Positions 1 to 35,027 of a DNA stretch of 44,509 bases are shown one piece after another. A model generated the notes under the pieces. The model did no database searches, was not told the origin of the DNA, and worked only from the letters and a program-made list of their open reading frames with translations. The stretch comes from Peptococcaceae bacterium (GTDB lineage: Bacteria; Bacillota; Peptococcia; DRI-13; UBA5745), in contig JAISDE010000061.1 in NCBI GenBank assembly GCA_031265035.1, forward strand, positions 1 through 44,509, read 5' to 3'. Within the stretch, counting starts at the first letter, position 1, and each line of letters begins with the position of its first letter. Position numbers and translations under genes: made by a program.

Positions 1-800
1 ATTTTGGCATTATCCGTGCCGTCGAAATGTGTATTCGCGCCACAAATGCGTATTTCGGCCAAAATGCGCGCGATTTCTTCCATGTCCGGGATTATGACAG
101 GACCATTATCGGGGTACAACTTATTGAAAATGAGACAGCCGTAGGAGCCTGGCAACTTGCGTGACGCGAAGGCATCCTGATGCTTTTGCAGGAATCGCCA
201 CACTTTAGTCTTTTCCCAACCCCAACGACTGCCCAGGGTTTCCAGTGTCAGCGCGGCGCCGTATTGACCGTACTGGACAATCGGCGCCAAGTCAGAGAAG
301 ATATTGCGCGGATCTCGCCGAACCGTATGGCACCACAGGTCGAGCCAGGCGTCAGCTTCCTCAAAGGTATAGCCGCCCTCCGCGAGCCTTGCTGTGATAT
401 CGCGAGGGAGGCAGAGAAAGCCGTAGCCATCAGTCGCGTATACTGCGCCGGTGCCAAGACAGGGTTCGCCGGAGCATTTCATAACATAATCAAGGATTTT
501 GTAAGTGAGTTTTTTGGTTTTTGGGTCGAGGGTGTATTCGATATAGCCGAGGTAGGCGAGGGTATCTATGATTTCCAACGCCTTCCGGCGATTCTTAACG
601 CCGAGGATATTCTTCAGCCCGACCACGCCGCCCGACCATGTGCCCGCGGCGACTTTGTTGATATAGCCGCAGTATTTGGCCTGCCCTTGGCGAAACGCCG
701 CCTTTGTAGCCAACCGCGCCCAATAACCCATTACGCCCTTGCCGGCGGGCAGGTGGGTGCGCGGCAGCTTGACCCATTGGTATTTGAGCAGGCATTTCAT
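1..800 (-). CDS. hypothetical protein whose C-terminus lies beyond the left window edge; probable gene of an integrated element
   Basis: Absent from the ORF track because it has no stop inside the window. On the minus strand the ATG is the complement of 798-800 and GGAGA is the complement of 809-813 (8-nt spacer). I read all 266 codons down to position 3 and found no stop. Translation starts MKCLLKYQWVKLPRTHLPAGKGVMGYWARLATKAAFRQGQAKYCGYINK with ordinary composition. No family recognised. Confidence 0.6.
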   Translation of the reverse strand, partial: MKCLLKYQWVKLPRTHLPAGKGVMGYWARLATKAAFRQGQAKYCGYINKVAAGTWSGGVVGLKNILGVKNRRKALEIIDTLAYLGYIEYTLDPKTKKLTYKILDYVMKCSGEPCLGTGAVYATDGYGFLCLPRDITARLAEGGYTFEEADAWLDLWCHTVRRDPRNIFSDLAPIVQYGQYGAALTLETLGSRWGWEKTKVWRFLQKHQDAFASRKLPGSYGCLIFNKLYPDNGPVIIPDMEEIARILAEIRICGANTHFDGTDNAK

Positions 801-939
801 AGACGTAATCTCCTTGCGGCGTTATTTAGACAAAAGAAAAGAGCCGCCAATGTGGCAGCTCATGAGCGTCAATGTGCATATAAACGCGCGTATTCAGTTT
901 GATTTGATCTGTTATACGCGCTCGTATCCGGTCAGGTTT

Positions 940-1569
940 TCACTCTACCCAATTCAGCAGACTTCTTGTTAACATATAAACTGTTGTGCAGGATTCAAAG
1001 GCGGATGGCCTGGAAGGGACTGTGGCGGCAACATGACGCTCATATCCCAACCGTGAATGCACGATGGCCGTTTTTACCTTTTCCTCTGTCAAGAGCGCGT
1101 CGCAAACTTTCTTGACGGTGTCCCGGTTCTTATCATATGGAAAGACGAGCAACTTGCCCAATTCTTCTTTATATTTGTTCCGATGCAAGGAAGATTCCAA
1201 CAATCGGAAATGATTGATGAACCACACCTCAAACGCCTGATTGGAAAAAGCGGCGCCGATTTTATGCCGTCCTGCATAGGCGATGGCGTCGTCAAAGTCT
1301 GTGAAATCATCCTTATCGAACACGCACCAAACCGCGTTATAGTCCTCTTTCCGCTGCTGCGCCCTAATGGCATACGCTACGATCTGCATGGGACTTTTTG
1401 CCTCAACTGCCGTGATAACGCTGATATTTCCCAGCGATGGCCGGAATACCTGTTTGAAAAGGTCAAAATATATCTGTTCGGTTTGCCCGCCACAGACAAC
1501 CAACACTTCTTCTTTTGTCTGACGGAACGGGGATTTCCGGCGGTATCGGCTCTCACTCAAAGCTGTCAC
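940..1569 (-). CDS. RloB-like Toprim-type protein, putative nuclease partner of the upstream ABC-type ATPase
   Basis: 209-aa ORF. VLVVCGGQTEQIYF (conserved Glu) and VWCVFDKDDFTDFDD (DxD) fit the Toprim-like core of the RloB family as I remember it. It overlaps the ATPase stop by 17 nt (GTG 1567-1569, or TTG 1558-1560 after GAGGTGA), so translation is probably coupled. Confidence 0.8.
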   Translation of the reverse strand: MTALSESRYRRKSPFRQTKEEVLVVCGGQTEQIYFDLFKQVFRPSLGNISVITAVEAKSPMQIVAYAIRAQQRKEDYNAVWCVFDKDDFTDFDDAIAYAGRHKIGAAFSNQAFEVWFINHFRLLESSLHRNKYKEELGKLLVFPYDKNRDTVKKVCDALLTEEKVKTAIVHSRLGYERHVAATVPSRPSAFESCTTVYMLTRSLLNWVE

Positions 1570-2713
1570 CTCGGTTCAAATCGGGGATAGCGCCGTAAAC
1601 GCCCAACAGATACCGCTTGAGTATATCGCTGTTCTTGCGTACATCCTTGAAATCGCTAAGGGCGTACAGACTGCTGACACTGTGCTCATCTTTGTCCACG
1701 AACCATATCTGGTCGCGCCGGATATCCTCGTCCAGCAGCAAAACGTCGTGCGTGGCGCAGATAAGCTGCGCGTTCAGAGGGTTCCGGTCAATAGAATTGA
1801 TAAGCGCGATCAGATGCCGTACTAAAGCGGGATGCAGATGGAGATCCATCTCGTCTATCACGATCACCGCCGATTCGGTCAATGCCTTGGAAAAGGCGTC
1901 CGACAGATCAAGCATTCGCTTGGTTCCATCCGAAGAGTAATCCGCGAAAGGCACGTCTATGATTCGCCCCGTGTTCCAATCCTCGCCGTATACCTTGTGG
2001 GAGCTGAACAAAGCCCCGCCGGATTGCCGCTTCATCTCCAATATATCACCGTCAGCTTTCTGCACGAATGCCCGGGTGAAATCGCTGATTGCCTTCGGAG
2101 TCACAGCCGCGTCGCCGTTCAACCCGAAGATAATCAGTTTTCGTGATATCCAATCCACAATTTTGATGGCCAGTGAGTTGTTCGCGTAGGCGGCCCATGA
2201 TAGGAACAGCACATCGCCGCGCACATTCTTCCTCAGCGGCTCCACATCGGCCATGTCCGGAGTAAGGCGAATGTTGTCAAACTCGGGGGCCGTCCGTTCA
2301 AACACCACTGTCCGGCGTCGAGATTTCTTATACAGATGCTCTCGACTGATCTGTCCGGCAAGAATAGCAAAGCCATAGTCGTAGACTACGCCGTTTAGCA
2401 GGAATGATATTTCAAACCTGGTCGGCAGTTTCCCTGCGTCCTCCCGGAAGGTAAAGGGCTGACAGGTTTTGATATGCTCTGTTTGCACATCAATAGAAGA
2501 TACGATCATCTTTTTCATGTAGTACAAGGCATGGATCAAGTTTGACTTGCCGCCGGCGTTAGCGCCGTAAATCAGGACGCTTTTCAGCAAATCGTCATGC
2601 TCCGTGGGTATGACGTTGAACTCCCTGTGTTCCTTATCGCCGGTCGCGATCATGCTGAGGGAGGCCTCTCCCAGAAAAGACCGGAAATTCTCGACTGTAA
2701 ATCCAATCAACAT
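1553..2713 (-). CDS. soluble ABC-type ATPase (AAA_21 / OLD-, AriA-, RloA-like ATPase module)
   Basis: 386 aa with no TM segments. Motifs: N-terminal FTVENFRSF, Walker A GANAGGKSN, Walker B VIVIDEMDLHLHP, H-loop ICATHD. GAGGTGA lies 7 nt upstream of ATG 2711-2713. Confidence 0.85.
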   Translation of the reverse strand: MLIGFTVENFRSFLGEASLSMIATGDKEHREFNVIPTEHDDLLKSVLIYGANAGGKSNLIHALYYMKKMIVSSIDVQTEHIKTCQPFTFREDAGKLPTRFEISFLLNGVVYDYGFAILAGQISREHLYKKSRRRTVVFERTAPEFDNIRLTPDMADVEPLRKNVRGDVLFLSWAAYANNSLAIKIVDWISRKLIIFGLNGDAAVTPKAISDFTRAFVQKADGDILEMKRQSGGALFSSHKVYGEDWNTGRIIDVPFADYSSDGTKRMLDLSDAFSKALTESAVIVIDEMDLHLHPALVRHLIALINSIDRNPLNAQLICATHDVLLLDEDIRRDQIWFVDKDEHSVSSLYALSDFKDVRKNSDILKRYLLGVYGAIPDLNRGDSFE

Positions 2714-2734
2714 AGTTCAATCACCTCTGCGCCT

Positions 2735-2763
2735 ATTATATAACTTATCAAGTAAAATTGCAA
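2735..2763 (-). promoter_or_regulatory. SigA/sigma-70-type promoter of the ATPase-RloB operon
   Basis: Minus strand reads TTGCAA (2758-2763), 17 nt, TATAAT (2735-2740), about 20 nt upstream of the ATPase SD. A second TTGCAA lies just upstream. Confidence 0.6.
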
Positions 2764-2818
2764 TAGAATTGCAAAATAGTGATTTAAGAATTTATTTAGA
2801 TTTGGGTTGAGTGGTTAT

Positions 2819-3031
2819 CTACATCCTTACCGGCAGCCCCGGAAGATTCTTGGTCTTGATGCCGACAAGGAACCAGTCGTTGGCCTTTTCGATCCGCGTT
2901 AGAATCCATTCGCCGTCAATCAACACATCGAAAGTCTCTCCGCAATGCAGACCGCCATAGTAGTCCGTCAAACCGAAACGGATGTCTATGCGGCCTTGCT
3001 GCTTATCATAAATGAGCGTCCCAGTTTTCAT
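2819..3031 (-). CDS. DUF5348 family small protein
   Basis: MKTGTLIYDKQQGRIDIRFGLTDYYGGLHCGETFDVLIDGEWILTRIEK matches my memory of the ~70-aa DUF5348 family of Firmicutes. ATG 3029-3031 follows AAGGTG (complement of 3041-3046). The track's longer ORF starts at GTG 3043. Confidence 0.7.
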   Translation of the reverse strand: MKTGTLIYDKQQGRIDIRFGLTDYYGGLHCGETFDVLIDGEWILTRIEKANDWFLVGIKTKNLPGLPVRM

Positions 3032-3452
3032 AATTGAAATCACCTTATCCTTTCATGCTGTGCTATCCACCATTGAACATTATTAGCGGCTGTTCATCCT
3101 GCTAAAAAAACAGAAAACAGGTGTTCAGGTTTTCAAAAAGCTAAATTACTTACTTAATACTCAAATTATTTATAGCTAATTTTTTCAATCTATCTATTGA
3201 ATTTATGGATGCTATATGCTACTATAATCAAAGACCTAACGGGAGTTTCCATCCAAACCGAACGGAAATTCCCGTTAGCAAAAATGTGGAATCTGCTAAT
3301 AAACTGCTAAGTGGACGCCATAAAAACGATGATATTCGGGAGTACGCCAACGCACTTGGAAGTACACTCAGTTTCGGAAAACCTTGCGATTACAAGCATT
3401 TGCCGGTACTGTAGAGTGAGCCAGCGTACTCTGTAAAATACGTGGGGTTCAA

Positions 3453-3497
3453 CTCATAACCGGGTGGTCGCAGGTTCGAGTCCTGCAAGGCCCACCA
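3453..3497 (+). other. tRNA(CAU) 3' half (Met or Ile2 type) with CCA; att-like scar, not a functional tRNA
   Basis: CTCATAA (anticodon loop, CAU) CCGGG TGGTC GCAGG TTCGAGT CCTGC AAGGCCC A CCA. The 5 nt before the loop (TTCAA) cannot pair with CCGGG. No D arm and no GGGCCTT acceptor strand exist upstream. Confidence 0.75.
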
Positions 3498-3509
3498 TCG
3501 CGCTCATCG

Positions 3510-3549
3510 GAAACGCTGTAATATCAATGATTTGCGGCGTTTCTTTTTT
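3510..3549 (+). terminator. candidate rho-independent terminator after the tRNA fragment
   Basis: GAAACGC (3510-3516) pairs with GCGTTTC (3537-3543) and is followed by TTTTTT (3544-3549). The 20-nt loop is long, so confidence is moderate. Confidence 0.45.
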
Positions 3550-3572
3550 GTTTACCCCGTTTTATTACTGTT

Positions 3573-3893
3573 AGCGGCGCCGATTTTATGCCGCCCGGCA
3601 TAGGCGATGGCGTCGTCAAAGTCTGTGAAATCATCCTTATCAAACACGCGCCAAACCGCGTTATAGCTCTCTTTCCGCTGACGCGCCCTAATGGCATACG
3701 CCACGATCTGCATGGGGCTTTTTGCCTCAACTGCCGTGGTAACGCTGATATTCCCCAGCGATGGCCGGAATACCTGTTTGAAAAGGTCAAAATATATCTG
3801 TTCGGTTTGCCCGCCGCAGACGACAAGCACTTCTTCTTTTACTTGACGGAACGGGGCTTTCCGGCGATATCGGCTCTCACTCAAGGCTGTCAC
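3573..3893 (-). pseudogene. truncated second copy of the RloB-like gene (N-terminal ~107 codons only)
   Basis: ORF 3552..3893 matches residues 1-107 of the 940..1569 product with 6 substitutions by eye, then diverges. DNA homology to the intact copy begins at 3573 (AGCGGCGCCGATTTTATGCC). Confidence 0.85.
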
Positions 3894-4510
3894 CTCGGCT
3901 CAAATCGGGGATGGCGCCGTAGACGCCCAACAGATACCGCTTGAGTATATCGCTGTTTTGGCGTACATCCTTGAAATCGCTCAGGGCATACAGACTACTG
4001 ACGCTGTGCTCGTCTTTATCCACAAACCATATCTGGTCGCGTCGGATGCCCTCATCCAGCAGCAAAACGTCGTGCGTGACGCAGATAAGCCGCGCGTTCA
4101 ACGGGTTCCGGTCAATAGAATTGATAAGCGCGATCAAATGCCGCGCCAACGCGGGATGCAGATGAAGATCCATCTCATCTACAGATGCTCTCGACTGATC
4201 TGTCCGGCAAGAATAGCAAAGCCATAGTCGTAGACTACGCCGTTTAGCAGGAATGATATTTCAAATCTGGTCGGCAGCTTCCCCGCGTCCTCTCGAAAGG
4301 TAAAGGGTTGACAGGTCCTGATATGCTCCGTCTGCACGTCAATGGAGGATACGATCATCTTTTTCATGTAGTACAGGGCATGGATCAGGTTGGACTTGCC
4401 GCCGGCGTTCGCGCCGTAAATCAAAACGCTTTTCAGCAAATCGTTATGCTCTGCGGATATAACATTGAACTCCCTGTGTTCCTTGTCGCCGGTCGCGATC
4501 ATGCTGAGGG
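3877..4510 (-). pseudogene. decayed second copy of the ABC-type ATPase (5' truncation plus ~0.48-kb internal deletion)
   Basis: ORF 4179..4514 matches intact residues ~18-127 (5 differences). ORF 3877..4173 matches residues 289-386 (7 differences). The two are out of frame, with a stop at the junction near 4179-4181. Homology ends at 4510, so the first ~17 codons and the promoter are missing. Confidence 0.85.
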
Positions 4511-4514
4511 ACAC

Positions 4515-4558
4515 AAACTCTCCAACTCTCCAAACTCTCCAATTTCTCCAACTTCTCC
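4515..4558. repeat. five tandem 8-9-bp repeats, AA(A)CTCTCC-like
   Basis: AAACTCTCC AACTCTCC AAACTCTCC AATTTCTCC AACTTCTCC read directly. The array starts where ATPase-remnant homology ends and stops 1 nt before a -35 box. Confidence 0.8.
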
Positions 4559-4559
4559 A

Positions 4560-4588
4560 TTGACGGCGGGAGAAAAAGAGAGTATATT
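4560..4588 (+). promoter_or_regulatory. candidate promoter of the AlbA_2-family gene
   Basis: TTGACG (4560-4565), 17 nt, TATATT (4583-4588), 29 nt upstream of ATG 4617. Confidence 0.5.
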
Positions 4589-4616
4589 ATGGACAATATT
4601 CCGAGAGGGTGATTAC

Positions 4617-5975
4617 ATGATTGAAAATCAAACAGTTGAGTACAAACGTGAATATAATCAAAAAGCAAAAAATACAATGCTCGCGTTTCTGAATACGGAC
4701 GGAGGAACGCTTTACCTCGGCATAGACGATGACGCCTCTATATATGGTATAGATGGTGACATCGACATTGAAGCCCGGAGGGTTGCCAGTGGTTTCCGTG
4801 ATTCCGTAACGCCCGATCCATCCGGATATTTCAAAGTAGAGCCGGAAAAACGCGAGGGCAAATATATCATTTTAGTAACCGTGGAACGCGGTTCCGCTAT
4901 TCCCTACTGCTACGCCGCGGACGGTCTTGTCCCGAAAGGCGTCTATGTTCGTGTTGGCAGCAACACGGTGATGGCCACCCGTGAGCATATCCGCCAGATG
5001 ATTAAGGACAACGGCACAGGGCAGTTCATTTCCGAATTGTCGATTGAGCAGAGCCTTACATTCGAGTATGCTGATAGGATTTTCGCCGCGAAGGAAGTCA
5101 AATTCGGTAAGGAGCAAAAGCAGTCTCTTGGGCTGATACGTCCCGATGGGCGTTATACCAACCTTGCTTTGATTCTTTCCGACCAATGCCCCTATACCAC
5201 CAAGGCGGCTATTTTCGAGGGGCTAAACAAGGAGAAGTTCAAAGACCGTAAGGAGTTTACGGGCTCCCTGTTTAAGCAAATAGAAGATGTTCATACCTAT
5301 CTTCACGTTTTTAATCGGTCGCGCAGCACCTTTGAAGGCGCGTACAGGGTGGACCATCCCGATTACCCCGATGTCGCGATCCGGGAAGCGTATGTGAACG
5401 CCCTCATTCACAGGGACTACTATATTGAGGGCAGCGTTCTTGTCAGTATGTTCGGCGACCGCCTTGAGTTTATGTCTTTGGGCGGTGTGATGCCCGGCGT
5501 TACCCATGACTTAATGTTGGCCGGCGTATCGGTTACGAGGAATGAGAAACTGGCGCGAATCTTTTACCGGCTGAATATTATAGAGGCGTTCGGCACAGGT
5601 ATCCCCCGCATTTTCGGCGCGTATGAGCGCAGTGTCCGGCAGCCGGAAATACCTGTCGTGGACGGCGGGTTCCTTATTCGCGTTCCTAATATGAATTACA
5701 GTAACGGACAAGAGACAGCCAATGGTAAAACCGTTGGCATCACAAACGAGCAGCGCTTGCTTGCCACATTTGCCGATGCCAGTTTCAGCAAACAAGACGC
5801 GGCGGGGGTTCTCGGAATAACCGTAAGCGGCGCGTATAAGCTGTTGCAGCGTATGACGGAACAAGGCTTGCTTGTCGCATATAAAGAGGGCAAGCAATGG
5901 ATATACAGCGAACCGTCCAGCATGGCTAAGCTCATTACATCGGGTAAGCCTAAAGGGCGCAAGACTACACACTAA
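4617..5975 (+). CDS. AlbA_2 (Schlafen-like) + HATPase_c_4 + C-terminal wHTH protein, a putative transcriptional regulator often mis-annotated as RecG-like
   Basis: Start chosen at MIENQTVEYKREY (ATG 4617, GAGAGGGTGA upstream), the usual N-terminus of AlbA_2 proteins. The central segment VAIREAYVNALIHRDYYIEGSVLVSMFGDRLEFMSLGG...IIEAFGTGIPRIF is typical HATPase_c_4. The C-terminus is wHTH-like. The track's upstream extension (4308-4616) is antisense to the ATPase remnant. Confidence 0.8.
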   Translation: MIENQTVEYKREYNQKAKNTMLAFLNTDGGTLYLGIDDDASIYGIDGDIDIEARRVASGFRDSVTPDPSGYFKVEPEKREGKYIILVTVERGSAIPYCYAADGLVPKGVYVRVGSNTVMATREHIRQMIKDNGTGQFISELSIEQSLTFEYADRIFAAKEVKFGKEQKQSLGLIRPDGRYTNLALILSDQCPYTTKAAIFEGLNKEKFKDRKEFTGSLFKQIEDVHTYLHVFNRSRSTFEGAYRVDHPDYPDVAIREAYVNALIHRDYYIEGSVLVSMFGDRLEFMSLGGVMPGVTHDLMLAGVSVTRNEKLARIFYRLNIIEAFGTGIPRIFGAYERSVRQPEIPVVDGGFLIRVPNMNYSNGQETANGKTVGITNEQRLLATFADASFSKQDAAGVLGITVSGAYKLLQRMTEQGLLVAYKEGKQWIYSEPSSMAKLITSGKPKGRKTTH

Positions 5976-6070
5976 CTTCCGCTATCGTCCACTCAACGGA
6001 CAACACTCGAAATCATTTTGGCGTCTTCGTCAAAAAACCGTATGCGGATATGTTATCACGAGAAATCGCG

Positions 6071-6111
6071 AAACGCCGCCAATCATCAAAGGATTAGCGG
6101 CGTTTCTTTTT
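6071..6111. terminator. rho-independent terminator between convergent genes
   Basis: AAACGCCGC (6071-6079) pairs with GCGGCGTTT (6097-6105), with CTTTTT following on the + strand. Partial T-run on the other strand. Confidence 0.6.
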
Positions 6112-6134
6112 CGCCAGGGGCTTCTTCATGATCT

Positions 6135-6583
6135 TCATCGAACCACCCATTTCCCGCCTTTATTGGCGCCCTCTCGGTAAATAATTTGCCTTTGCTTGAG
6201 TTCGAAAATAACGCGGTCTACTGTCCGAGTGGCAATTCCGGTCTTTTCCGATATGCGTTTTTTGGAAATCGACGGATTCTCGCGCATACAGGAAACAATC
6301 TCCTAAGCGCCTCCGCTTGCCGCGCCGCTTCCGGATCGGTCAGGCTGTATTCCCGCTTGAGGTCGTCCGCGTTGACATAAGTTTCGAACACAGGCAGACC
6401 GCGCGTAAGCGTGCTTTTCCCGGAGCCGTTCGGTCCCGCGAACGCGAGAACCTTGGGCCGGCGCGTCACGTCAGCGCCCATTACCGACATATTCTTTTTT
6501 TCCATCCGCGTTTTCCAAATAGGCGCGACCGGTGGCGGCGTCATATCGCGCCACGGGGAAACCCCGGCTTTCGTTACACTCAT
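6135..6583 (-). pseudogene. chimeric remnant: N-terminal fragment of a zeta-toxin/COG4185-like P-loop protein joined out of frame to the C-terminal wHTH of an AlbA_2/HATPase_c_4-type regulator
   Basis: ORF 6218..6583 contains PKVLAFAGPNGSGKSTLTRGLPVFETYVNADDLKREYSL (Walker A), but only ~60 residues look native. A second minus-strand frame from ~6305 to stop 6135-6137 reads EIVSCMRENPSISKKRISEKTGIATRTVDRVIFELKQRQIIYREGANKGGKWVVR, a typical wHTH tail. Confidence 0.5.
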
Positions 6584-9590: not shown

Positions 9591-9736
9591 GGAAATATTA
9601 CAATTTGGAAATGTTCCCCCTTTCTTTGTTTTTCTCATGCTAAAATCAGGATGATTTTGCCGGCGATCCTCGCGTACGGGGCGCCGGCAAGCGCCGGAAA
9701 AAGTTGAGGAAACCGCAAAAAAGGGGGTTCACAAAA

Positions 9737-12700
9737 ATGAGGAATCACAAAAAGCATCAAACCATATCCCGCCTGTTGTCATGGCTGCTTATCTCGGCCA
9801 TGACGCTGACGCTGCTACCGCTTCAAGGCTTCGCGGCGGCAGGGGAGCGGCCCTCCGATTCGCCGGGAAACGGCGGCGTGACGGATTCGATCTATCAGGT
9901 GGCCGAGGATAGCCTGGCGATGGCTGAGTTGCTCTCCCGCATCGGGCTTATGTCCGCGGACAAGGGCAATACGGCCCAGAGCGACGACCTCTATATCATT
10001 GACGGCCGCCGCTACAAGGTGATCTACAACGATTATATCGCCTGTTATGTCGAGGCGGCGACCGGCGGTTACACCATTTTGCCCACCGCGATCGGGCTGA
10101 CCTCGCCCTCGGCCCTGGGCATAAGCCTGGCGGACTCCCTTGGCGGGGCGGTGTTCAATATTGACGGCGGGGAATACGTTTTCGGCGGGGATTACCCGGC
10201 GAAAAACTCCTATCTGTTTCGGCCCGAGGTGCGGGGCGACATGCTTGTGACCCACTGGAACCTCGGCGATTATATCATTTCCCAGTATCAGGCCATTACA
10301 CAGGATGTGAGCCGGGAAAACTCTTACGCGGTCAAGGTGGCCTACGCCGCCGAGTATTTCGGCCCGTCGGATACGCCCTCCGAGATTTCCGGCCGGCTGA
10401 TTCTGCCCGCTCGCCTGGGCGACGACGGGAAAGCCCCGCTCGTCACCGGCGACGGCGGCCTTTTGCTGGGCGGCACGGTGCTGGCGCCGGTGCCCGACGA
10501 AATCTGGATGAATGGCGGGGACGGCCCGCGGACCTTCTTTGTCCTGAACGAGCACCAAAGCGATCTGCCCGCGCCGGAGCGTATGGCGCTGGGCGACAGG
10601 GCGGAACTGCTGGCCGGCGGGGAACCGGAGCAGTTCGCGGAGCTGAGTGACCCCGCCGCGTCCTTTACCTTCGCGCCCCGGACGCTGATAATACCTAAGG
10701 AAGGCGCGGCAGATCTCAATTCCAATCTTTGCGCCTTTTTGGTCAACTACGGTTACTACAATCTGATCCCGGCGGAATTGAGCCTGACGGTGGACGAGGC
10801 AGCCGCGCGGGAAAGCGCGGCGCTCTCCGAGTTGACGCTGGGTCTTTTGGCGGCGGGTGAAACCGCGTCGCTGTATTTCGATATATACGCGAATTATGCC
10901 GACAAAAATCCTGTCCCGGGCATGGACGCCAATGAGGCGGTCAAGCTGACCGACCTGACCTGGCAGCGCCCCGACGACGAGAACCCCACCCGCGTCAGTG
11001 TTTCCGGCGAGGGACTGCGTTCGGGTACGCTCGCCACAACTCAGCAGACGTTTGACATACCCACCGGCGCGACCGTCCGTTTCGGGGTGGATTGGGTCAG
11101 CCCGGGCGACGGGGAGCGCCTTGACCTCGGGGTGAATCAGAATTATCACTGGCCGTCCGGGTCGGAAGGAAACACGGAATTTCGCGCCCTCGCGCCGGAC
11201 GCCGACGGCATGTACGAGTTTGTGATGCAGTCTGCCGCCGACGAGGCCACGGTGGAATTTCGCGTCGCGCCCAAGCCCGGTTACGCGGCGCTGAACTGGA
11301 ACCATGCCGCGGTCTACTGGTCTCCCGTCCCGGTGACGGTATCGGATTGGAACCCGTCCCGCTTCGCGGTGGCGCCCGGGGAAACCGTAAGCATGACGCT
11401 GAACGGCGATGTGCCCTTCTATCTGTACGACGCCGCCGCCTCGCCGGAGCATTATCCCGGGCTGTATTACTACAAGACCGGCGACGACCACTATGACCCC
11501 GCCGCCGCTGTCGCCTTTGACAGTGCCCAGGCGCGTTACCCCGACGAGTACGGCGTTTTGCCGCTTTCGTTCACCGTGCCGAATGCGCAGGGTATCACGG
11601 AAGTCGGCATCGACTGGTACCCGGAAGAATCTGACTATCATAACACCAACTACGGCAACTGGCGTTACGCCTCCGTCAGCGTGATTCCCCGGGACGCGGT
11701 GGCGGGCGGGCTGCTGAGCCTGTCGGGCGGCAGCTGGATGAACGGCATCTTCCGAGCGGCCTCCGGCACGACCATTACCGTTGCCGTACCGACCTTGGCG
11801 AACGGCTATGACGCGAACAGCACCTATCTGTCGGTGTTCGACACGTATTTCGGGGAGGCCGTGGCCATATCCTACGGTTCAAGCCCGACGACTACAGACG
11901 AGCCTGTTTCCCTGCAAACTCTCAACAGCGCTAGCGCCGGCGTCGTCACGTTCACCATGCCGGATTCCGACGTGGCGGTACGTCTGGCGGCGGCGACCTA
12001 TCCCAATGTGCTCACCGAGGTAAAGTACACGAACAGCAGCGACACTGCCATCAGCCTAGCCGACTATGACGGCCCCAAGGTCGCCGTGACCCTGCTGCCG
12101 GATCCGGCGTCAACCAACGAGACCGTCGCCCTGCGCTTGGAGCATCTGCTGGAAGGCGGCGGCGAGCCCTTTGATCTAGGCGCGACGACAGTCGCGATAA
12201 CAAAAAATGGCGAAACCAATACAACAATCACACCCGTGACGAATCTCGCGGGACGGGAGTATTCCTTTACCATGCCCGCCTACGACGTCAAAGTCACCGT
12301 GACCATGAAGCAGGCGGCGGAGCCTACGCCCGTACACACCCTGTCCACCCGTCCGCTGGTGGAGGGCGGCGAGATTCGCGGCGGCATTTGGGCGCGGGAA
12401 CAGTATACGACGCAGTCCGAGCGCCCCGCGTTCGCTCAGGACGGTACCTCGGCGCGAATCCCCCAGGGCGCGACGGTGGAATACTACGCCTACGAGCCGG
12501 ATTATACCGACACATGGGTGATCGACGCGGTGTATCTCGCTCGGGCCGACGACCCGGAGTTGAAGCCGATAAGCAGCTATAATTTGGAGCCGGGCTACGC
12601 CAGCGGCGGCGGGGGCCAAGGTTCCATCACCTACCGTACTTTCACCATGCCAAACTACGATGCGGTGATCGTGGTGCGGGGCGGCAACTATCCCTACCCG

Positions 12701-15700
12701 GTAAAAACCGAATCCGTCTACGTGGTGGGCAGCGAGGTGACGGGGGGCGACTACCTGAACGCCCCCTACCACCCCTTGACGAACAATTATGTCGCGGCCT
12801 ACGGTAAGGAGTTTACGTTAGCTAACGCCGGAACCCTCGCGCCCATTGACGCCATCATGCCCGGCGAGGCGGTGTATGTGGACGCCAAGCTGATTGCTGG
12901 TTACTACCTGAAAGAGGTTTGGCTGCTCATGGAGGGCTGGGCGCCCCGGAAATTGGATTTGACGCCGAACTATTCCATCGGATGGCATTATACGGGCGGC
13001 TTTCTCATGTCCGGCATAGGGCGGGGCGCGACAGTGCGCGCGATCTACGAAATAATCAATCCCGTAAAAATCACCTACACCCTGCCCGCCAACAGCGCCG
13101 GCCTGCGCCTTGACGAAGGCGGCCCGGTACGGTACCGGACGGCCAACGCGGAGCAGGATCCCTATACAGGCCAGGTCACAGGCGGCACATACTTCGCGCA
13201 AGATATCGTCTACCTCTACAACGATAATCCCTATGAACGGGCTTACAAGCTGCGGGAGGGAACGAACATAGATCTGGGCGGCGGCGTCAAGGCTGATATT
13301 ACCAGGAATGACTACATCGGCTGCGTCGGCTACGACGTGCGGCTCACCTGGCCCACAAGCGGCGGGTTTCCGGCCAATATCCCAATCCCCATTGAGGGTC
13401 AGGATGTGGATTTCAAGCCGGCCCGTTTCGACAGCGCCGTCCCCAACCACACCAACCCGGAGAAATTCGAGAGCGTCACTGTATCCGGCCAATTCAGCGC
13501 CGAGACGATTGAGACGGGCGAGATCCATCTGGTGGTCTACGAGCCGAGCGGCGCCTACGTCAGCGGCGCCTCGCCTATTCTGAATACCTACAAAATCGAT
13601 TGGACGAAGGCGGGAGGCGCCATCACCCCCGCTGCCGGGGATGAGCCGGCGACCCTGACGCTGAACCTGAAAGCTTCCGGCGCCATAATAGGCGGTCCGC
13701 CCGCTTTCAGCGAGATGGGGGCGACGGATGTATACGAGAACGGCTCCCTTGTCGGCACAAAACCCAATACCAAACGGGCCTGGGGCATACAGGTCGGCTA
13801 CCGGCCCCTGTTCACCTCAAATGCCGGGGCGGGTGTGGAATACGGCACAGGCGGCAAGGCCATCCTCGCCTTCAACCTGCACGCGGCCGAGGTCAATTAC
13901 GCCGCGCCGCCCAAGTATTACATGAGCATTGCGCGGGACGACTGGGGCAATTACGCCATGAAGGTGGGCGCGACGGAAGCGGAAGCCCGGGGCAACGGGA
14001 GCTATCCCACTACCGTGCTGACCTTTTACAACGAAAAGGGCTTTTTCGCCGACGATCCCGCCAACCCGGCCACGGTGCAAATCTCCGACGAGGGCGCCCA
14101 GAAGGTCAGCTTCAACGGCGCCATGTTCCTGGAAACCTACGGCCTGGGCACGCTGAAATTCACCAAAGACAGCGCGGGCGTCCATATGGAAGCCGAGAAT
14201 ATGCGGCTGCAAGCCCTGAACACGCCTATCTTTGTCCCCAGCTACATGTTCGCCGAAAGCCGCACACTGATGATGCATATGTATAACGGCTGGTGGTACT
14301 CGCTCAACCCCAAAAGCTCCGAAGAGCCTATAACCTTCGCGCCCTGGGGCGACATCAGCATGGAGATCGCGGGCTGGACGGGCTTCGCGGCCGGCATTGA
14401 CGAAATAAAGGTGACAAAAAACACCATCAATATCAAGGGCGGCCTGTGGATGACCTGGCCCTTTGCCCAAGAGCCTTTCGGCGGTTTCGGCGTGGAGCGC
14501 CTGGAGCTGGAAATCAACAGCGGACAGGAGTATTTCGCGAAGTTTCGCGGCATTGAGGCGGAGGGCAAAATGGAGTTGCCCCAGCTCTACATTATCGGCG
14601 GCAGCGCCTACGCCCGGATCAACACCTTTGAGAACGATTATTACTTTGAGACGGAGGCTTCGCTGGGGCCGGCCAGCCTGGGCGGCTTCCTGCACCTGAA
14701 GGAATCAGAGCGGCTGGGCATCTGGCTGCCCAACAGCTTCTACTTCGACGTCGATCTCGGCGAAGTGGGCGTGCCCCTGGTGCCCCCCGCCATTGTGGCC
14801 TGGATCACCGGCGTTTCCGGCGGCATCAGCAATATGGTGGACACCATCGACTATGACTGGCGCGCCACCTTTTTTCCGCCAATTACGGTCACGATAGGAG
14901 CCCACTTCAAGCTGGTGCAGCTTTTGAGCTTCCACGCGGAAATCACCAGCGGCTTCTACAGCATGGTAGGCACGCTGACCGGCAGCGTGGAAATCGGCAA
15001 GGTCGGCGTTGACATCCTGGACTACCTGACCTTTGAGTTCGGCCTGTTCAACGAGCCGAAACGGGCGGACTCCAACTGCTCCCGGGTCTTTGCCAAGATC
15101 GGCGTACACGTCGGCCTGGCCCTGTCCAACCAATATGTGAAGGATATCATCAAAGGACAGCTGGGCGGCGCTTTCGGGCTGAAATTCGACAACCCCCTGC
15201 AAACGGGCTGGGACGCCATAATCTCCTATATGGAGGATCAAAGTACGAAGCTCTCCGTGACGGATCTAATCAATAAGTTTGCCCTGGAATACGCCGGCTA
15301 CGCCTACGGCGGCGTGGAGGTCTACTTCCCGCAAATCCTGGTTTTCGGGCCTTTCCATCTTGCCAGCGTATACGCGCATATGAATTTCAGCGTCAAGCTC
15401 AACATCCAGCCCGAAGGCATGTTTGCCTCCCAGGGCTGGGTGGCGGGCCGCGCCCAGTTGCTGGAAGATCTGCGGGGCTGGTTCGCCTACAATATGGGGA
15501 ACGAATATTTGGCTTTCGGCCACGGCGACCTGCCGGACAACTACGCGAATCTGGCCGGTATCACTACGTACAGCATGGCGGCGATGTCCATGTCGGCCTC
15601 GTCCGGCGCGGCGAAGGAATTGGGCGAAGGTCTGCGGGTGCTGGCGGATACGGAAAGCGCCGGCGCCTGGTCGCCGGCGCCGGATGCCGGATCCCTCTCC

Positions 15701-18700
15701 CTGTTCGCGGCCGGGTCGGACGCGGCCGGCGTCAAGATATACAGCGGCAAGGAAGGCGATATTTTTACCCGGCGCTTCACCCTGCCCGCGGGCAGCGCGG
15801 ATTACTTCCTGGCCCTCCGTCAGCTTGAGTCGGGCACCGCGGACGCCGCGGGCGCCGATACCGTCGCTGACGCGGATCTGCGGCTTTACGCCCCGAATGG
15901 CGCGGAAATCACCCTGAACGTGTGGGACGCGGAGGATACCGTCACCGAAAACGACGCCCGTTTCGTCTACAACACCCTCGCGGGCAGGGATGATAGCGGC
16001 AACAGGACGTGGCTCATCGCCCTGCCGGAGGATACAGGCGTGGTGGGCGCGGGTGAGTGGACGCTACGATCCAGCCGCGACGTGTCCGCGCAGCTCTGGC
16101 AGCAGGACGCGATGCCCGGCATCGGCGGCGTCGCCCTGAGCGGCGGAGCGAGCGCGAACGGGGGAGTGAGCCTCAACAAAGGTACGCTTACGATTGACCT
16201 GGAAAACCTCAAACCGGAAGGCAGCGGGAACGGACAGCAGAATTACCAATATTCCATAGACTTGGTGCGCCGGGCCGCCCCCGACGGTGAAGCCCTGGCC
16301 ACTATAAATGTGCCGCTGGGTAAAATAAATTCAGACAGTGTCGCCGGAAATGACCAGGAAGGTAATACGTCAATGGTCGGCGACTACTACGGCGACGTGG
16401 CGCAGGGCGGTAGCAGCGGCAACGGTAGCGGCTACGAATCCAAAACCCTCACGGCAGCGCTGAGCGCCGCCATGTTCCCTGATGACGCGACACCCGGCGA
16501 TTACTACCCCGAGGTAGTGCTCTACCGTTATTACGGCACGGATGCCGAGGGCGAGGCCCTGCGTATGCCCCTGGACCGGGCGCCGGGCTACGAGCCGGTC
16601 AAAGTGACGAACGGCACCTTCGCGGACGTGACTGTGGGCAGCCTGACGGCTGTGGCCGGCCAGAACCAAAGCATAGAGGTGACCTTTGAGGGCGTTTCAA
16701 AAGATAGTGATTACGCAGACTTGGAATCTGCGGGTTATCTGATTACAGGCTACACAGTCGCCGCTTACGGCGGGGACGGGCTGCCCGCCCAGGCCATGCC
16801 CGCCAACCCCTCCGCCGGCGGGGGCAGCCTGAAAGGGCAGCCCGCGGATGGCGGCCCGGCGGCGGGGCCCGGCTATGTCGCCACCGGGCTAACGCTCTCC
16901 TACGACAGCGACGGCGATCTGCCCGCCCTGCCCGCCGGCGCGGACGACAGCCACACCGCGATCCTCACCGGGCTGACGCCGGGGCAATACACCGCGGGCG
17001 TCACGCCCATCTTCGCCGCCCAAGCGAACATCGCCGTACAGAGCAACGGCGTTGAGACGAGAACCTCCGGCGCTGTATCGGTCATAAAAGCGGTCGCGCC
17101 GGCGCTGACGCTGAGTCTCGCGGGCGGCGTCATCAGGGACGGCGACGGCAGTAGCAAGGTTCTCTGCGTCAGCCCCGGTTTTGAGCTGACGGTCAGCACA
17201 GCCGCCAACGCGGACATCAGCGTAATCCGCTACCGGGACAAAGAGGAAATGGCGGCGGCGACGAACGCGACATCACTCGCGCTGTCCGCGGCAACCTATT
17301 TCGGCAAAAACAGCGCGACCGTGAATGGCCAGCAGATCATCGGCGGCTATGAGACCCTGATGATCACCGCCGTGGACAGCGCCACGCTGGGCAGTGTCAA
17401 CCAAGTCGTCACCCTTGTGCCGGATTTGACGCCGCCCACGCTGATTGTGGACAATCTGGCGGGGGACGCGCGGGTCGTCGCCACCACAGACAGCAGTTTC
17501 ACCATCCAAGGGCGCACCCAGCCCGGCCTGACCGCCAGTTTGCTGAACGCCGGGGCGCCGATGTCGGCGACGTCGGACGACGCGGGGCGCTTCTCACTGA
17601 ACGGTACTCTGCCCCAGGACAGCGACGGGCAAATCGCGGTCGCCGTCATGGGGGCTTCCGGGCTTACGGCGTCGCAGACGCTGAAAGTCGAGCAGGTCAG
17701 CGCGGCGGACTTCACGGCCCTGGAATTGACCCCGGCGGGTACGCTTGCCATGACACAGGGCGACACGCTGGCCTTGACGGTGCTGGGCGCGAGAGCGGAC
17801 GGCAGTAAAATCAGCCTGTCCCCTGACAGCCTGACCTTTACCGCGGCCGGTTCCGTGACGGTCGACCCGGGCGGTGTGTTGACAGTCATCGGCGCCGGCG
17901 CGGGAACAGTCGCCGCCCGGTTGGGCGCTCTGCAATCTAATACTCTGCAGATTCAGGCCCAGGCCCTGGCGGGCGGCGACAGCGGGACGCCCACTCCCGG
18001 CTCCGGCCGCTCAGGCGGCGGCGGCGCCGGGGCGGCCACCACTAACCGCCCGCGCGGCTATATCATCACAACCCCGGACGGCAAGTCCGCCGTGACGGGA
18101 GCGGACGGCACTATCACCCTGCCGGGGGGCGGCGGGATCAAAACGCCGGCGGGCCTGACCGTCACCGCGCCGGCGGGCACGACCATAACGCTGAACGACG
18201 TAGTGACGCCGCCTCGATCGGCCGCCCTGTCGGTAACGCTGCCCTCCGGTTTGGCGCTGAATATCAGGCAAGGGACAGCCATCATCCTTGATGAGAGCGT
18301 CCCGCTGGGCTACCTGGCGGTCTTTGAGAATCAGTTCGCCGATGTGAGAGCGGGCAACTGGTTCTTTGACGATGTGGGCTTCGCCTATACCAACGGCCTG
18401 TTCGCCGGCACGGGGGCGGCCGCGTTCAGCCCCAACGCGCCTATGACCCGGGGCATGCTCGTCACCGTATTGGGCAGGCTTCACGGCATCGACACCAGCG
18501 GCCTCAAAAACGGTACATTCAGCGATGTGGACGCCGCCGCGTACTACGCCGCCTATGTTGAGTGGGCCCGGGAGGCCGGCGTCGTGAGCGGCGTGGGCGG
18601 CAACAATTTCGCCCCGGGCGCCCCGATTTCCCGGCAGGATTTGGCGGTCATCCTCCACAACTACATGCGGTTCGCGGACAAAGAGCTTCCAAGGAAACGG

Positions 18701-18883
18701 GAATATGGGGGATTTATTGATGACGGGGACATCGTGGCCTACGCCCGCGAGGCGGTGAGCGTCCTTTACCGGAGCGGCGTGATTGGCGGCAAGCCCGGCA
18801 ACCTCTTTGACCCGAAAGGCCCGGCCACCCGGGCCGAGGCCGCGGCCATGCTGCGCAGGTTTATCATCGCCGTCAGTGGGTGA
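9737..18883 (+). CDS. giant (3,048-aa) secreted, SLH-anchored cell-surface protein
   Basis: Start at ATG 9737 (AAGGGGG 9721-9727). Signal peptide MRNHKKHQTISRLLSWLLISAMTLTLLPLQGFAAAGE. A Big_2-like Ig segment (LELTPAGTLAMTQGDTLALTVLGARADGSKISL) lies near the C-terminus, then a Gly/Pro/Thr linker. Three SLH repeats follow (FADVRAGNWFFDDVGFAYTNGLFAG, FSDVDAAAYYAAYVEWAREAGVVSG, FIDDGDIVAYAREAVSVLYRSGVIGG). I recognise no domain in the first ~2,500 residues. Confidence 0.9.
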   Translation: MRNHKKHQTISRLLSWLLISAMTLTLLPLQGFAAAGERPSDSPGNGGVTDSIYQVAEDSLAMAELLSRIGLMSADKGNTAQSDDLYIIDGRRYKVIYNDYIACYVEAATGGYTILPTAIGLTSPSALGISLADSLGGAVFNIDGGEYVFGGDYPAKNSYLFRPEVRGDMLVTHWNLGDYIISQYQAITQDVSRENSYAVKVAYAAEYFGPSDTPSEISGRLILPARLGDDGKAPLVTGDGGLLLGGTVLAPVPDEIWMNGGDGPRTFFVLNEHQSDLPAPERMALGDRAELLAGGEPEQFAELSDPAASFTFAPRTLIIPKEGAADLNSNLCAFLVNYGYYNLIPAELSLTVDEAAARESAALSELTLGLLAAGETASLYFDIYANYADKNPVPGMDANEAVKLTDLTWQRPDDENPTRVSVSGEGLRSGTLATTQQTFDIPTGATVRFGVDWVSPGDGERLDLGVNQNYHWPSGSEGNTEFRALAPDADGMYEFVMQSAADEATVEFRVAPKPGYAALNWNHAAVYWSPVPVTVSDWNPSRFAVAPGETVSMTLNGDVPFYLYDAAASPEHYPGLYYYKTGDDHYDPAAAVAFDSAQARYPDEYGVLPLSFTVPNAQGITEVGIDWYPEESDYHNTNYGNWRYASVSVIPRDAVAGGLLSLSGGSWMNGIFRAASGTTITVAVPTLANGYDANSTYLSVFDTYFGEAVAISYGSSPTTTDEPVSLQTLNSASAGVVTFTMPDSDVAVRLAAATYPNVLTEVKYTNSSDTAISLADYDGPKVAVTLLPDPASTNETVALRLEHLLEGGGEPFDLGATTVAITKNGETNTTITPVTNLAGREYSFTMPAYDVKVTVTMKQAAEPTPVHTLSTRPLVEGGEIRGGIWAREQYTTQSERPAFAQDGTSARIPQGATVEYYAYEPDYTDTWVIDAVYLARADDPELKPISSYNLEPGYASGGGGQGSITYRTFTMPNYDAVIVVRGGNYPYPVKTESVYVVGSEVTGGDYLNAPYHPLTNNYVAAYGKEFTLANAGTLAPIDAIMPGEAVYVDAKLIAGYYLKEVWLLMEGWAPRKLDLTPNYSIGWHYTGGFLMSGIGRGATVRAIYEIINPVKITYTLPANSAGLRLDEGGPVRYRTANAEQDPYTGQVTGGTYFAQDIVYLYNDNPYERAYKLREGTNIDLGGGVKADITRNDYIGCVGYDVRLTWPTSGGFPANIPIPIEGQDVDFKPARFDSAVPNHTNPEKFESVTVSGQFSAETIETGEIHLVVYEPSGAYVSGASPILNTYKIDWTKAGGAITPAAGDEPATLTLNLKASGAIIGGPPAFSEMGATDVYENGSLVGTKPNTKRAWGIQVGYRPLFTSNAGAGVEYGTGGKAILAFNLHAAEVNYAAPPKYYMSIARDDWGNYAMKVGATEAEARGNGSYPTTVLTFYNEKGFFADDPANPATVQISDEGAQKVSFNGAMFLETYGLGTLKFTKDSAGVHMEAENMRLQALNTPIFVPSYMFAESRTLMMHMYNGWWYSLNPKSSEEPITFAPWGDISMEIAGWTGFAAGIDEIKVTKNTINIKGGLWMTWPFAQEPFGGFGVERLELEINSGQEYFAKFRGIEAEGKMELPQLYIIGGSAYARINTFENDYYFETEASLGPASLGGFLHLKESERLGIWLPNSFYFDVDLGEVGVPLVPPAIVAWITGVSGGISNMVDTIDYDWRATFFPPITVTIGAHFKLVQLLSFHAEITSGFYSMVGTLTGSVEIGKVGVDILDYLTFEFGLFNEPKRADSNCSRVFAKIGVHVGLALSNQYVKDIIKGQLGGAFGLKFDNPLQTGWDAIISYMEDQSTKLSVTDLINKFALEYAGYAYGGVEVYFPQILVFGPFHLASVYAHMNFSVKLNIQPEGMFASQGWVAGRAQLLEDLRGWFAYNMGNEYLAFGHGDLPDNYANLAGITTYSMAAMSMSASSGAAKELGEGLRVLADTESAGAWSPAPDAGSLSLFAAGSDAAGVKIYSGKEGDIFTRRFTLPAGSADYFLALRQLESGTADAAGADTVADADLRLYAPNGAEITLNVWDAEDTVTENDARFVYNTLAGRDDSGNRTWLIALPEDTGVVGAGEWTLRSSRDVSAQLWQQDAMPGIGGVALSGGASANGGVSLNKGTLTIDLENLKPEGSGNGQQNYQYSIDLVRRAAPDGEALATINVPLGKINSDSVAGNDQEGNTSMVGDYYGDVAQGGSSGNGSGYESKTLTAALSAAMFPDDATPGDYYPEVVLYRYYGTDAEGEALRMPLDRAPGYEPVKVTNGTFADVTVGSLTAVAGQNQSIEVTFEGVSKDSDYADLESAGYLITGYTVAAYGGDGLPAQAMPANPSAGGGSLKGQPADGGPAAGPGYVATGLTLSYDSDGDLPALPAGADDSHTAILTGLTPGQYTAGVTPIFAAQANIAVQSNGVETRTSGAVSVIKAVAPALTLSLAGGVIRDGDGSSKVLCVSPGFELTVSTAANADISVIRYRDKEEMAAATNATSLALSAATYFGKNSATVNGQQIIGGYETLMITAVDSATLGSVNQVVTLVPDLTPPTLIVDNLAGDARVVATTDSSFTIQGRTQPGLTASLLNAGAPMSATSDDAGRFSLNGTLPQDSDGQIAVAVMGASGLTASQTLKVEQVSAADFTALELTPAGTLAMTQGDTLALTVLGARADGSKISLSPDSLTFTAAGSVTVDPGGVLTVIGAGAGTVAARLGALQSNTLQIQAQALAGGDSGTPTPGSGRSGGGGAGAATTNRPRGYIITTPDGKSAVTGADGTITLPGGGGIKTPAGLTVTAPAGTTITLNDVVTPPRSAALSVTLPSGLALNIRQGTAIILDESVPLGYLAVFENQFADVRAGNWFFDDVGFAYTNGLFAGTGAAAFSPNAPMTRGMLVTVLGRLHGIDTSGLKNGTFSDVDAAAYYAAYVEWAREAGVVSGVGGNNFAPGAPISRQDLAVILHNYMRFADKELPRKREYGGFIDDGDIVAYAREAVSVLYRSGVIGGKPGNLFDPKGPATRAEAAAMLRRFIIAVSG

Positions 18884-20322: not shown

Positions 20323-20367
20323 AATATGGCCTCCAGAAAAATGCTCTATCACGATATACTATATCAT

Positions 20368-20402
20368 AATAGAGCAATAATGACAAATAGAGCAATAATG
20401 AC
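20368..20402. repeat. 17-bp tandem direct repeat x2 (AATAGAGCAATAATGAC)
   Basis: Copies at 20368-20384 and 20386-20402, between the kinase-like gene stop (20414) and the ATPase start (20322). Confidence 0.85.
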
Positions 20403-20413
20403 GACTGGGTCGG

Positions 20414-29337: not shown

Positions 29338-29470
29338 TCATTTCTGCCTCCCCGATATGACAAATCGTCGTTTTTTTCTTGTTTGGCCGCATAACTTTAC
29401 AGAATGTCAAACCTTATTTTTTCCGGCTGCCTAAAATAAAATAAGGGAAGCGACCAACAAGGAGGAACCC

Positions 29471-30160: not shown

Positions 30161-30211
30161 TAGTGTATGACGCCTAAAATTCCAAATTTCACCCAAAACG
30201 GGCTTTCTTGA

Positions 30212-30823
30212 TCATTTCTTTTCCCCGCCGCCGCTCCTGGCGGTCAGCCGCTCCGTCAGCCAGCCGGCCAATTCCTCCCGGCCCTGACCGGTCTCGGCGG
30301 AAAAAGGGATCACCGCCGTCGCCGGCGCCAGCGCCAATTCCCGCCGGATTTCCCCGACCTGCTTTTGCCAGCGCCCTTTGGGCAATTTGTCCGCCTTCGA
30401 GCCAGCCACGACAAAAGGAATCGCCTGATACCGCAGCCATTCCACCATCAGTTGATCCGACTCCATCGGCGGGTGCCGAAAGTCCACCAATTGGATCACC
30501 CCCGCCAGTTCCTCGCGGCCGGTAAGATAAGCCTCAATAAATTGGCCCCAGCGAGCGCGATCGGTCTTTGAGGTTTTGGCGTAGCCGTAGCCGGGCAAAT
30601 CCACAAAAAACCAGGCTTGGTTGATAGCGTAAAAATTCAGGGTCTGGGTCTTACCGGGCTGTCCGCTGGTACGGGCCAGATTTTTTCGTTGCAGCAGGTT
30701 ATTGATCAAGGAGGACTTGCCGACGTTGGAACGGCCGGACAGGGCGATTTCCGGCCGGCCGCCCGGCGGGTACTGCTCCGGTCTCACCGCGGCGGCGAAC
30801 ATCGCCGCTTCCCGTATGATCAT
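30212..30823 (-). CDS. engB: ribosome biogenesis GTPase YsxC/EngB
   Basis: G1 motif [12 protein letters not shown] and typical N-terminus. 4-nt ATGA overlap with the lon stop. Confidence 0.93.
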
Positions 30824-34944: not shown

Positions 34945-35027
34945 TTTCCCGACATTACCACAGCCCTTACCCACAGCTATTTCCCCAACCTTTACAAAAA
35001 TATTCATTTACGCCTTCGTGAATAATT

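Follow-up and report, generated by a model that had tools for sequence, protein, structure and literature searches.

What does an ATPase gene followed by a small gene of the RloB family do at the edge of a bacterial mobile element? The question is raised by positions 940–2763 of contig JAISDE010000061.1 of a Peptococcaceae bacterium (assembly GCA_031265035.1), a contig whose entire 44,509 nucleotides (nt) form the window analysed here. An earlier note, made from the letters alone, had described this segment as a split OLD-like module of an anti-phage or abortive-infection family. That description was correct although it left AbiL unnamed, as PADLOC matches to AbiLi and AbiLii and the literature now make clear: the pair belongs to the already known AbiL kind, and standard defence-annotation tools would label it AbiL. 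An AbiLi-type ATPase gene comes first and an AbiLii/RloB gene second, adjacent and co-oriented in one operon. We therefore consider it probable, on the strength of sequence comparison, that the two genes form an intact AbiL-family (AbiLi/AbiLii; RloA/RloB-like) abortive-infection module directed against phages. The features reported earlier are all present; their strand had gone unstated, and it is the minus strand.

The first gene (1553–2713, minus strand) encodes an AbiLi-like soluble ABC ATPase of 386 amino acids (aa) with a Rad50/SMC-type head of the AAA_21 family. As had been noted from the letters, it carries a Walker A motif (GANAGGKS, residues 50–57), a Walker B motif (VIVIDE, 283–288) and an H-loop histidine (H322), and has no transmembrane segment (the 19-residue Kyte-Doolittle mean peaks at 1.39); the Walker A lysine, previously given as K57, is K56, residue 57 being a serine. 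A signature-like SSDGT lies at 260–264, with its SxGT motif at 261–264. Across 26 homologues (alignment A4) residues G50, G55, K56, S261, G263, T264, D287 and H322 are invariant and E288 is nearly so. The protein matches Pfam AAA_21 (E 5.2e-32), and its best PADLOC match is AbiLi (E 8e-82, 272.9 bits). The PADLOC ‘AriA’ model PDLC02980 scores it at 2e-32, far below AbiLi, and the 304 positions and matched range of that hit coincide with those of the generic AAA_21 match. An AlphaFold2 model (pLDDT 87.9) found Rad50, PtuA, SMC heads and Ts OLD (6P74) as its top matches in the Protein Data Bank (PDB; E 6e-10 to 5e-8), with AriA absent from the top 50 structural matches. NCBIfam has no model specific for either protein of the pair, its PtuA model scoring the ATPase at 40 bits against a cut-off of 500 bits, and PHROGs has families for both.

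The second gene encodes the AbiLii-like RloB protein, a putative Toprim-type nuclease effector or toxin, and runs on the minus strand over 940–1569 if read from a GTG (209 aa) or over 940–1560 if read from an in-frame TTG (206 aa). The length of 209 aa and the 17-nt overlap with the ATPase frame given earlier hold for the GTG start, and the probable start is the TTG at 1560, because homologous cassettes begin rloB with an ATG aligned to it and the GTG at 1569 lies inside the conserved GAGGTG ribosome-binding site upstream of it. The gene caller picked the same TTG. The true product is thus probably 206 aa long, overlapping the ATPase stop by 8 nt (TTGAGTGA), an overlap common to all the relatives. 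The earlier note had staked its case on profile searches placing this protein within Toprim/RloB, and it falls squarely in RloB: the Pfam RloB profile is matched over its whole length (1–195 of 195, E 3.5e-35), and AbiLii is the sole PADLOC match (E 1.4e-20), so that the AriB model is not among them. E-values such as those for AAA_21, RloB, AbiLi and AbiLii put all four family matches far beyond chance.

The conserved glutamate and DxD that had been pointed out in the small protein are also there. In the 209-aa numbering the motifs are CGGQTE at 26–31 and FDKDD at 84–88, and E31, D85, D87, S109 and N110 are invariant across 26 RloB homologues (alignment A2). The AlphaFold2 model (pLDDT 88.5) has a four-stranded alpha/beta core with elements in the order beta-alpha-beta-alpha-beta-alpha-beta, in which E31 follows strand 1 (20–26) and D85-x-D87 ends strand 3 (77–85). 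A Toprim domain, as reportedly defined by Aravind in 1998, has a four-stranded parallel sheet with flanking helices, a glutamate following strand 1 and a DxD following strand 3, and the RloB model shows this hallmark pattern of the two motifs. Among structures, the model significantly matches only a viral ‘RloB-like protein’ (E 8e-12, TM-score 0.76). Membership of RloB in Toprim would be a matter of motifs, predicted topology and three published analyses, which include placements of RloB in the Toprim superfamily (PMC12065111; PMC10440598).

The operon has signals of its own. The promoter TTGCAA-17-TATAAT, which the earlier note had also picked out, lies at 2735–2763 on the minus strand, is of sigma-70 type with 10 of 12 consensus positions, and keeps both its place and its sequence in six homologous cassettes of differing genomic context (alignment A3); promoter-like sites as such number three in the region, against a mean of 3.4 in shuffled sequence. 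A ribosome-binding site, GAGGTGA (2721–2727, minus strand), stands 7 nt upstream of the ATPase ATG and is likewise conserved in A3. On the same strand an intrinsic terminator (841–861), a 9-bp stem followed by TTTTCTTTTG, comes 79 nt past the rloB stop and folds at -16.8 kcal/mol (z-score -4.9). The cassette is thus self-contained, a promoter and a terminator of its own enclosing two genes that are coupled in translation. An Rfam match to ctRNA_p42d was rejected (25.7 bits against a gathering score of 50), the hit being merely the operon's terminator hairpin. A second TTGCA(A) motif is found 11 nt upstream of the -35 hexamer (2735–2780 for the whole, minus strand), and the pair of motifs is conserved in six AbiL cassettes; the two could form an operator, though neither protein has a recognizable DNA-binding domain.

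The same gene pair recurs elsewhere. The ATPase-then-RloB order with its 8-nt overlap recurs in five metagenomic or genomic contexts, and the pairing itself was present in all metagenomic loci examined. Oscillospiraceae and other Clostridia carry it on their chromosomes, in neighbourhoods that vary, and plasmids of many phyla carry it at about 30–35% identity, annotated ‘ATP-binding protein | RloB family protein’. Among 48 IMG/VR contigs holding an RloB relative, an ATPase gene lies directly upstream in 44. Exact-sequence look-ups with both proteins found no other contig.

Broken rloB genes are frequent in metagenomes (P0054, P0056, P0058), with an internal deletion that removes the DxD or with replacements of the C-terminus. 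In one further locus, L007, a 1.7-kb insertion (1620–3331) flanked by duplicated CTAAC sits at rloB codon 110 and carries a 521-aa open reading frame (ORF) without a Pfam match. This insertion and a breakpoint in the decayed second copy described below are 9 nt apart, but we dropped the idea of an insertion hot spot, there being two events, a chance of about 3% and unrelated junctions.

A cargo slot at the end of a probable integrative conjugative element

The earlier note had placed the pair as cargo at the variable end of a mobile element, a placement upheld by the comparison with 80 related loci on which our judgement of the mobile context is based. One flank of the cassette is p266 (3–800, minus strand), the 5' 266 codons of a gene cut by the contig end. 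It is a conserved core gene of a widespread conjugative element of Clostridia, with 242 relatives in Clostridia genome contigs at 64–81% identity and a full length of about 357–363 aa. In the related contig L013, NlpC/P60 and TraG/AAA_10 conjugation genes come after p266, and lysS adjoins the end of the element. The other flank is a DUF5348 gene (2819–3043, minus strand; Pfam E 2.3e-26), which synteny marks as the terminal core gene of the element. These two genes and a partial tRNA gene are the part of the element that lies inside the window; the conjugation genes are read from its relatives, and the integrase, attL and the intact tRNA gene lie beyond the contig end.

The space between the two flanking genes varies. 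In 43 of the 80 loci the slot is empty, DUF5348 standing less than 300 nt upstream of p266, and in eight the gap holds 2.1–9 kb of other cargo. Here the gap is 2.0 kb (800–2819) and is filled exactly by the AbiL cassette, which fits between the DUF5348 stop and the terminator preceding p266. The block of DUF5348, AbiL and terminator is common to contig L006, where a 268-aa gene downstream of AbiL was considered as a possible p266 and rejected by tblastn. Comparison of these loci shows that DUF5348 and p266 enclose a slot for variable cargo, taken here by the AbiL cassette, at the att-proximal end of what is probably an integrative conjugative element (ICE).

What lies outside DUF5348 bears on the claim that the pair is the last cargo before an att scar. 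The 3' half of a tRNA(CAT) gene, 45 nt running from the anticodon loop (CTCATAA) to CCA and of Met or Ile2 type, occupies 3453–3497 on the plus strand, about 410 nt beyond DUF5348 and about 0.7 kb from the AbiL cassette; ARAGORN did not call it. Matching halves occur in two relatives, L080 (7213–7257) and L082 (7311–7355), at the same end, in the same orientation and with the same start at anticodon-loop position 32, and the scar is thereby supported. The fragments differ in type: CAT and Met/Ile2-like in the window, CAT and initiator-like in L080, CCT in L082. By sequence, each of the three is probably the attR core of an ICE of this family that targets a tRNA. The scar is real and the pair is the last variable cargo before it, with the qualification that a core gene, DUF5348, stands between the two. 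In L080, which has no DUF5348, a gene for AbiEii, part of another Abi/toxin–antitoxin system, stands between the tRNA fragment and p266. The att fragment shows no relation to the tRNA-Ser gene at 37982.

Just outside the att fragment, 0.9 kb from the intact genes (copy A), lies a decayed second AbiL cassette, copy B (3573–4511, minus strand). It consists of rloB codons 1–107 (3573–3893), the C-terminus of the ATPase (3877–4173) and an N-terminal ATPase fragment (4179–4511); the fragments give Pfam matches and are 91–93% identical to copy A at the nucleotide level. Copy B has suffered three lesions: its promoter and first 17 ATPase codons are gone, a 475-nt frame-shifting deletion lies inside the ATPase, and rloB is cut after codon 107. 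Its synonymous divergence (dS) from copy A is 0.20–0.39, at a ratio of non-synonymous to synonymous divergence (dN/dS) of 0.04–0.20 that is indicative of purifying selection. On these values we rejected a recent in-situ duplication and regard the copies as diverged alleles long under selection, copy B having once been functional. It would derive either from a decayed resident island downstream of the tRNA gene or from a decayed older element. Composition changes along the contig as well, positions 1–6000 having 46–52% GC against 55–67% for most of the rest, in a Clostridia genome of roughly 60% GC.

Mechanism and rival explanations

How, then, might such a pair act? Experiments have established AbiL as a two-gene abortive-infection system (Deng, 1999, as cited in PMC13064643), and the lactococcal system is reported to act after phage transcription (Table 1 of PMC13064643). 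It is listed with PARIS among the systems that split an ABC ATPase from a TOPRIM protein, and in PARIS the ATPase AriA keeps the Toprim tRNase AriB sequestered until binding of a phage protein (PMC11464382; PMC12409363). P2 Old, too, has recently been reported to be an abortive tRNase. A further pair, TOPRIM_OLD (D44, the RloB node) and AAA of Clostridium algidicarnis, has been validated as toxin and antitoxin, the former being toxic in E. coli and neutralized by its AAA partner (PMC10440598). The earlier note had called the trigger and target of the RloB type uncharacterized, and a 2026 review agrees: whether AbiL works like PARIS remains to be determined (PMC13064643).

By these precedents RloB would be a metal-dependent Toprim-type nuclease that is toxic when free, as PARIS, P2 Old and the NetFlax toxicity assays on a Clostridium RloB:AAA pair suggest. 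From the coupled message the ATPase would be produced first and probably in surplus; it would oligomerize and keep RloB inactive. A phage-derived cue sensed by the ATPase would then release or activate RloB, which would cut host nucleic acid, most likely tRNA or other RNA as AriB and Old do, with DNA a less likely substrate. Growth would stop and the infection would be aborted; the same toxin/antitoxin logic may also help to keep the element.

Several results weigh against this picture, and most concern the small protein. In Foldseek searches of the PDB its model had no match at E <= 0.001 and no OLD or Toprim protein among the top 50, the hits being alpha/beta folds of a generic kind, lumazine synthase and Rossmann-like domains among them, and the RloB family profile had zero matches to PDB sequences at E <= 10. 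Aligned with hhalign, the RloB alignment reached no significance either against P2 Old alone (E 0.17) or against an alignment of 38 Old-Toprim sequences (E 0.12), both runs pairing only the motif VLVVCGGQTE of RloB with VLLVEGKTE of Old. A Pfam scan of the 26 RloB homologues at E <= 10, a setting at which HMMER filters discard most matches above about 0.1, listed 25 families, and neither Toprim nor DUF4435 was among them. Of the profile checks proposed earlier, those for AAA_21 and RloB thus gave matches and that for DUF4435 gave none, and since RloB matches neither DUF4435 nor AriB, the PARIS mechanism is an analogy rather than a case of effector homology. Published AlphaFold predictions for related pairs gave no convincing AAA:toxin interface (PMC10440598). 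Our tblastn searches of plasmids recovered no Lactococcus sequence, so that the link to lactococcal AbiL is at the profile level only. Finally, the other cargo found in the slot is not consistently defensive, as it includes genes resembling an SOS-response peptidase (SRAP-like) and a Y-family polymerase, both assigned by eye from the N-terminal sequence only.

The best-surviving alternative, which we think unlikely, is that the pair is mainly an addiction module, a type II toxin–antitoxin system that stabilizes the conjugative element through the death of cells that have lost it, with phage defence absent or secondary. The antitoxin-first, translationally coupled architecture would suit such a role, as would the location of the pair in the probable ICE beside its att site and the broken toxin genes of many metagenomic homologues (P0054, P0056, P0058, the L007 insertion and copy B). 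An RloB-type:AAA pair moreover behaves as toxin and antitoxin in E. coli, and a related AAA-neutralized pair scored nothing in a phage screen (PMC10440598). In contrast, the founding member was, according to the account in PMC13064643, isolated through phage resistance, and the pair is often met in viral contigs as well as in chromosomal settings that lack an ICE. Addiction and defence are, besides, not mutually exclusive roles.

A more adventurous proposal, to which we give rather little credence, is that RloB-type AbiL differs from PARIS and Old, for example in that the compact ATPase and RloB form an ATP-driven nuclease whose substrate is not tRNA, that the complex represses itself through the strictly conserved TTGCA(A) pair as an operator, and that the arriving ICE allele made the resident copy dispensable, its ATPase cross-neutralizing the old toxin. 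If true, this would be a case of defence-allele turnover driven by conjugative elements.

We find it improbable that the pair is instead an OLD- or Gabija-like DNA nuclease complex which, regulated by ATP, degrades or nicks invading phage or plasmid DNA without host suicide. The ATPase model does match Ts OLD and the Rad50/SMC heads, which handle DNA; GajA, in which the same two domains are fused, is a DNA endonuclease (PMC10440598); and Toprim enzymes classically act on DNA (PMC12409363). However, the mechanistically resolved relatives closest in logic, the AriB of split PARIS and P2 Old, are abortive tRNases, lactococcal AbiL is reported to act after phage transcription (PMC13064643), and RloB-type proteins, expressed by themselves, are toxic to the host (PMC10440598).

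An accessory of type I restriction-modification (R-M), the original sense of RloA/RloB, or a non-functional remnant is scarcely credible: although type I R-M loci gave the RloB family its name (PMC10440598) and a decayed copy lies nearby, no hsd gene is present among the profiled ORFs within about 5 kb (p266, DUF5348, Schlafen/AlbA_2, the orf69 ORF and a P-loop pseudogene) and no hsd domain in any other profiled ORF, several large ORFs further along being identified only by eye or unidentified, and copy A has intact ORFs, all catalytic residues, a promoter, a terminator and a record of purifying selection.

Other features of the window

Beyond copy B, a gene at 4617–5975 (plus strand) with its own TTGACG-17-TATATT promoter encodes a 452-aa protein with Schlafen/AlbA_2 and HATPase_c_4 domains. 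It abuts the truncated 5' end of the dead ATPase, has weak PADLOC matches to pAgo-associated domains and may, from its sequence, be another defence-island gene. A P-loop NTPase fragment (GPNGSGKST) followed by an out-of-frame helix-turn-helix-like sequence occupies 6218–6583 on the minus strand and looks like a pseudogene bordering the low-GC island. Two terminator-like hairpins on the plus strand (3509–3545 and 6070–6113) have GATTnGCGGCGTTTCTTTTT in common. We rejected them as direct repeats bounding an older island and give the repeat no meaning, since chance alone should yield about one exact 15-nt repeat in 44 kb.

A second low-GC island (37982–42751, 41–45% GC) lies downstream of a tRNA-Ser(GCT) gene. 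Its contents are a D12 adenine methyltransferase, a DUF6996/6997/7226 protein that could be a restriction partner, a GmrSD-family protein and an MNT/HepT toxin–antitoxin pair. Defence-like genes are also found in the chromosomal part of the window, at 18937–21673 (minus strand) and 33619–37836 (plus strand): these encode an ATPase_2/DUF234 protein whose match to Mrr_cat is marginal (E 3.9e-4, at the cut-off), a protein weakly similar to HipA (HipA_C 19.9 bits against a cut-off of 30.5, its helix-turn-helix matches also being below cut-off), an AAA_14/DUF4143 protein and an SNF2 helicase. Further features are a 3059-aa ORF with a signal-peptide-like N-terminus (9704–18883, plus strand) and several GC-rich imperfect direct repeats of families D3–D6 (27224–31041).

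Comparison with known systems

AbiL is among the OLD-like ABC-ATPase plus Toprim systems whose trigger, target and assembly are undescribed, those of PARIS, Gabija and P2 Old having been worked out. A well-defined member that is small (386 + 206 aa), cleanly delimited as a cassette and equipped with a conserved promoter could give experimenters a handle on it, and many close homologues of the pair could be used for covariation analysis or for modelling of the complex. The locus also illustrates how conjugative elements of gut Clostridia carry Abi/toxin–antitoxin modules in the final cargo slot ahead of their tRNA att site, the module being AbiL here and AbiE in a related element. It places an intact and a dead AbiL allele side by side in an ICE/tRNA context; beyond that it holds nothing conceptually new.

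The closest counterpart is AbiL of the Lactococcus lactis plasmid pND861 (Deng, Liu & Dunn, 1999, as far as its content is relayed by later work), which has the same two-gene order, an ABC/AAA_21 ATPase followed by RloB, and a mobile carrier. The likeness is at the profile level, and the carrier is a probable ICE here and a plasmid there. The ATPase of the window is compact at 386 aa, whereas a review quotes 453 aa in its comparison of AbiLi with AriA (PMC13064643). With the RloA/RloB genes of Campylobacter jejuni our pair has in common the RloB family (PF13707) and an ATPase. Those genes were reportedly described by Miller in 2005 in type I R-M loci. In contrast, the pair of the window is not in an hsd locus and stands alone as a cassette with its own promoter and terminator, its neighbours being DUF5348, p266, the tRNA fragment and the Schlafen/AlbA_2 gene.

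PARIS, a split ABC ATPase and Toprim-type effector carried on mobile elements, is the probable template for the logic of a sensor that sequesters a nuclease (PMC11464382; PMC12409363). Its effector AriB belongs to DUF4435, whereas that of the window is RloB, and the window ATPase is about 100 aa shorter than AriA, so that an AriA-like hexameric propeller is not assured for it. The NetFlax pair AAA(D29):TOPRIM_OLD(D44) of C. algidicarnis, likened to ours by architecture, is an RloB-homologous toxin neutralized by an adjacent AAA ATPase (PMC10440598). For toxin/antitoxin behaviour of this architecture, though not for phage defence, it is the one piece of direct experimental support. P2 Old, with the class 1 OLD proteins, and GajA have the same two domains, an ABC ATPase together with a Toprim that has the glutamate and DxD, but in them the domains are fused in one polypeptide, whereas here a stop and restart divide them between two ORFs. 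Lastly, PtuA of Septu and retron I-A is among the closest solved structures to the ATPase and is the closest from a defence system (8EEA, 8EE4, 8SUX, 9N6C), with weak matches at the sequence level too; its partner is the HNH nuclease PtuB, and that of the window ATPase is RloB.

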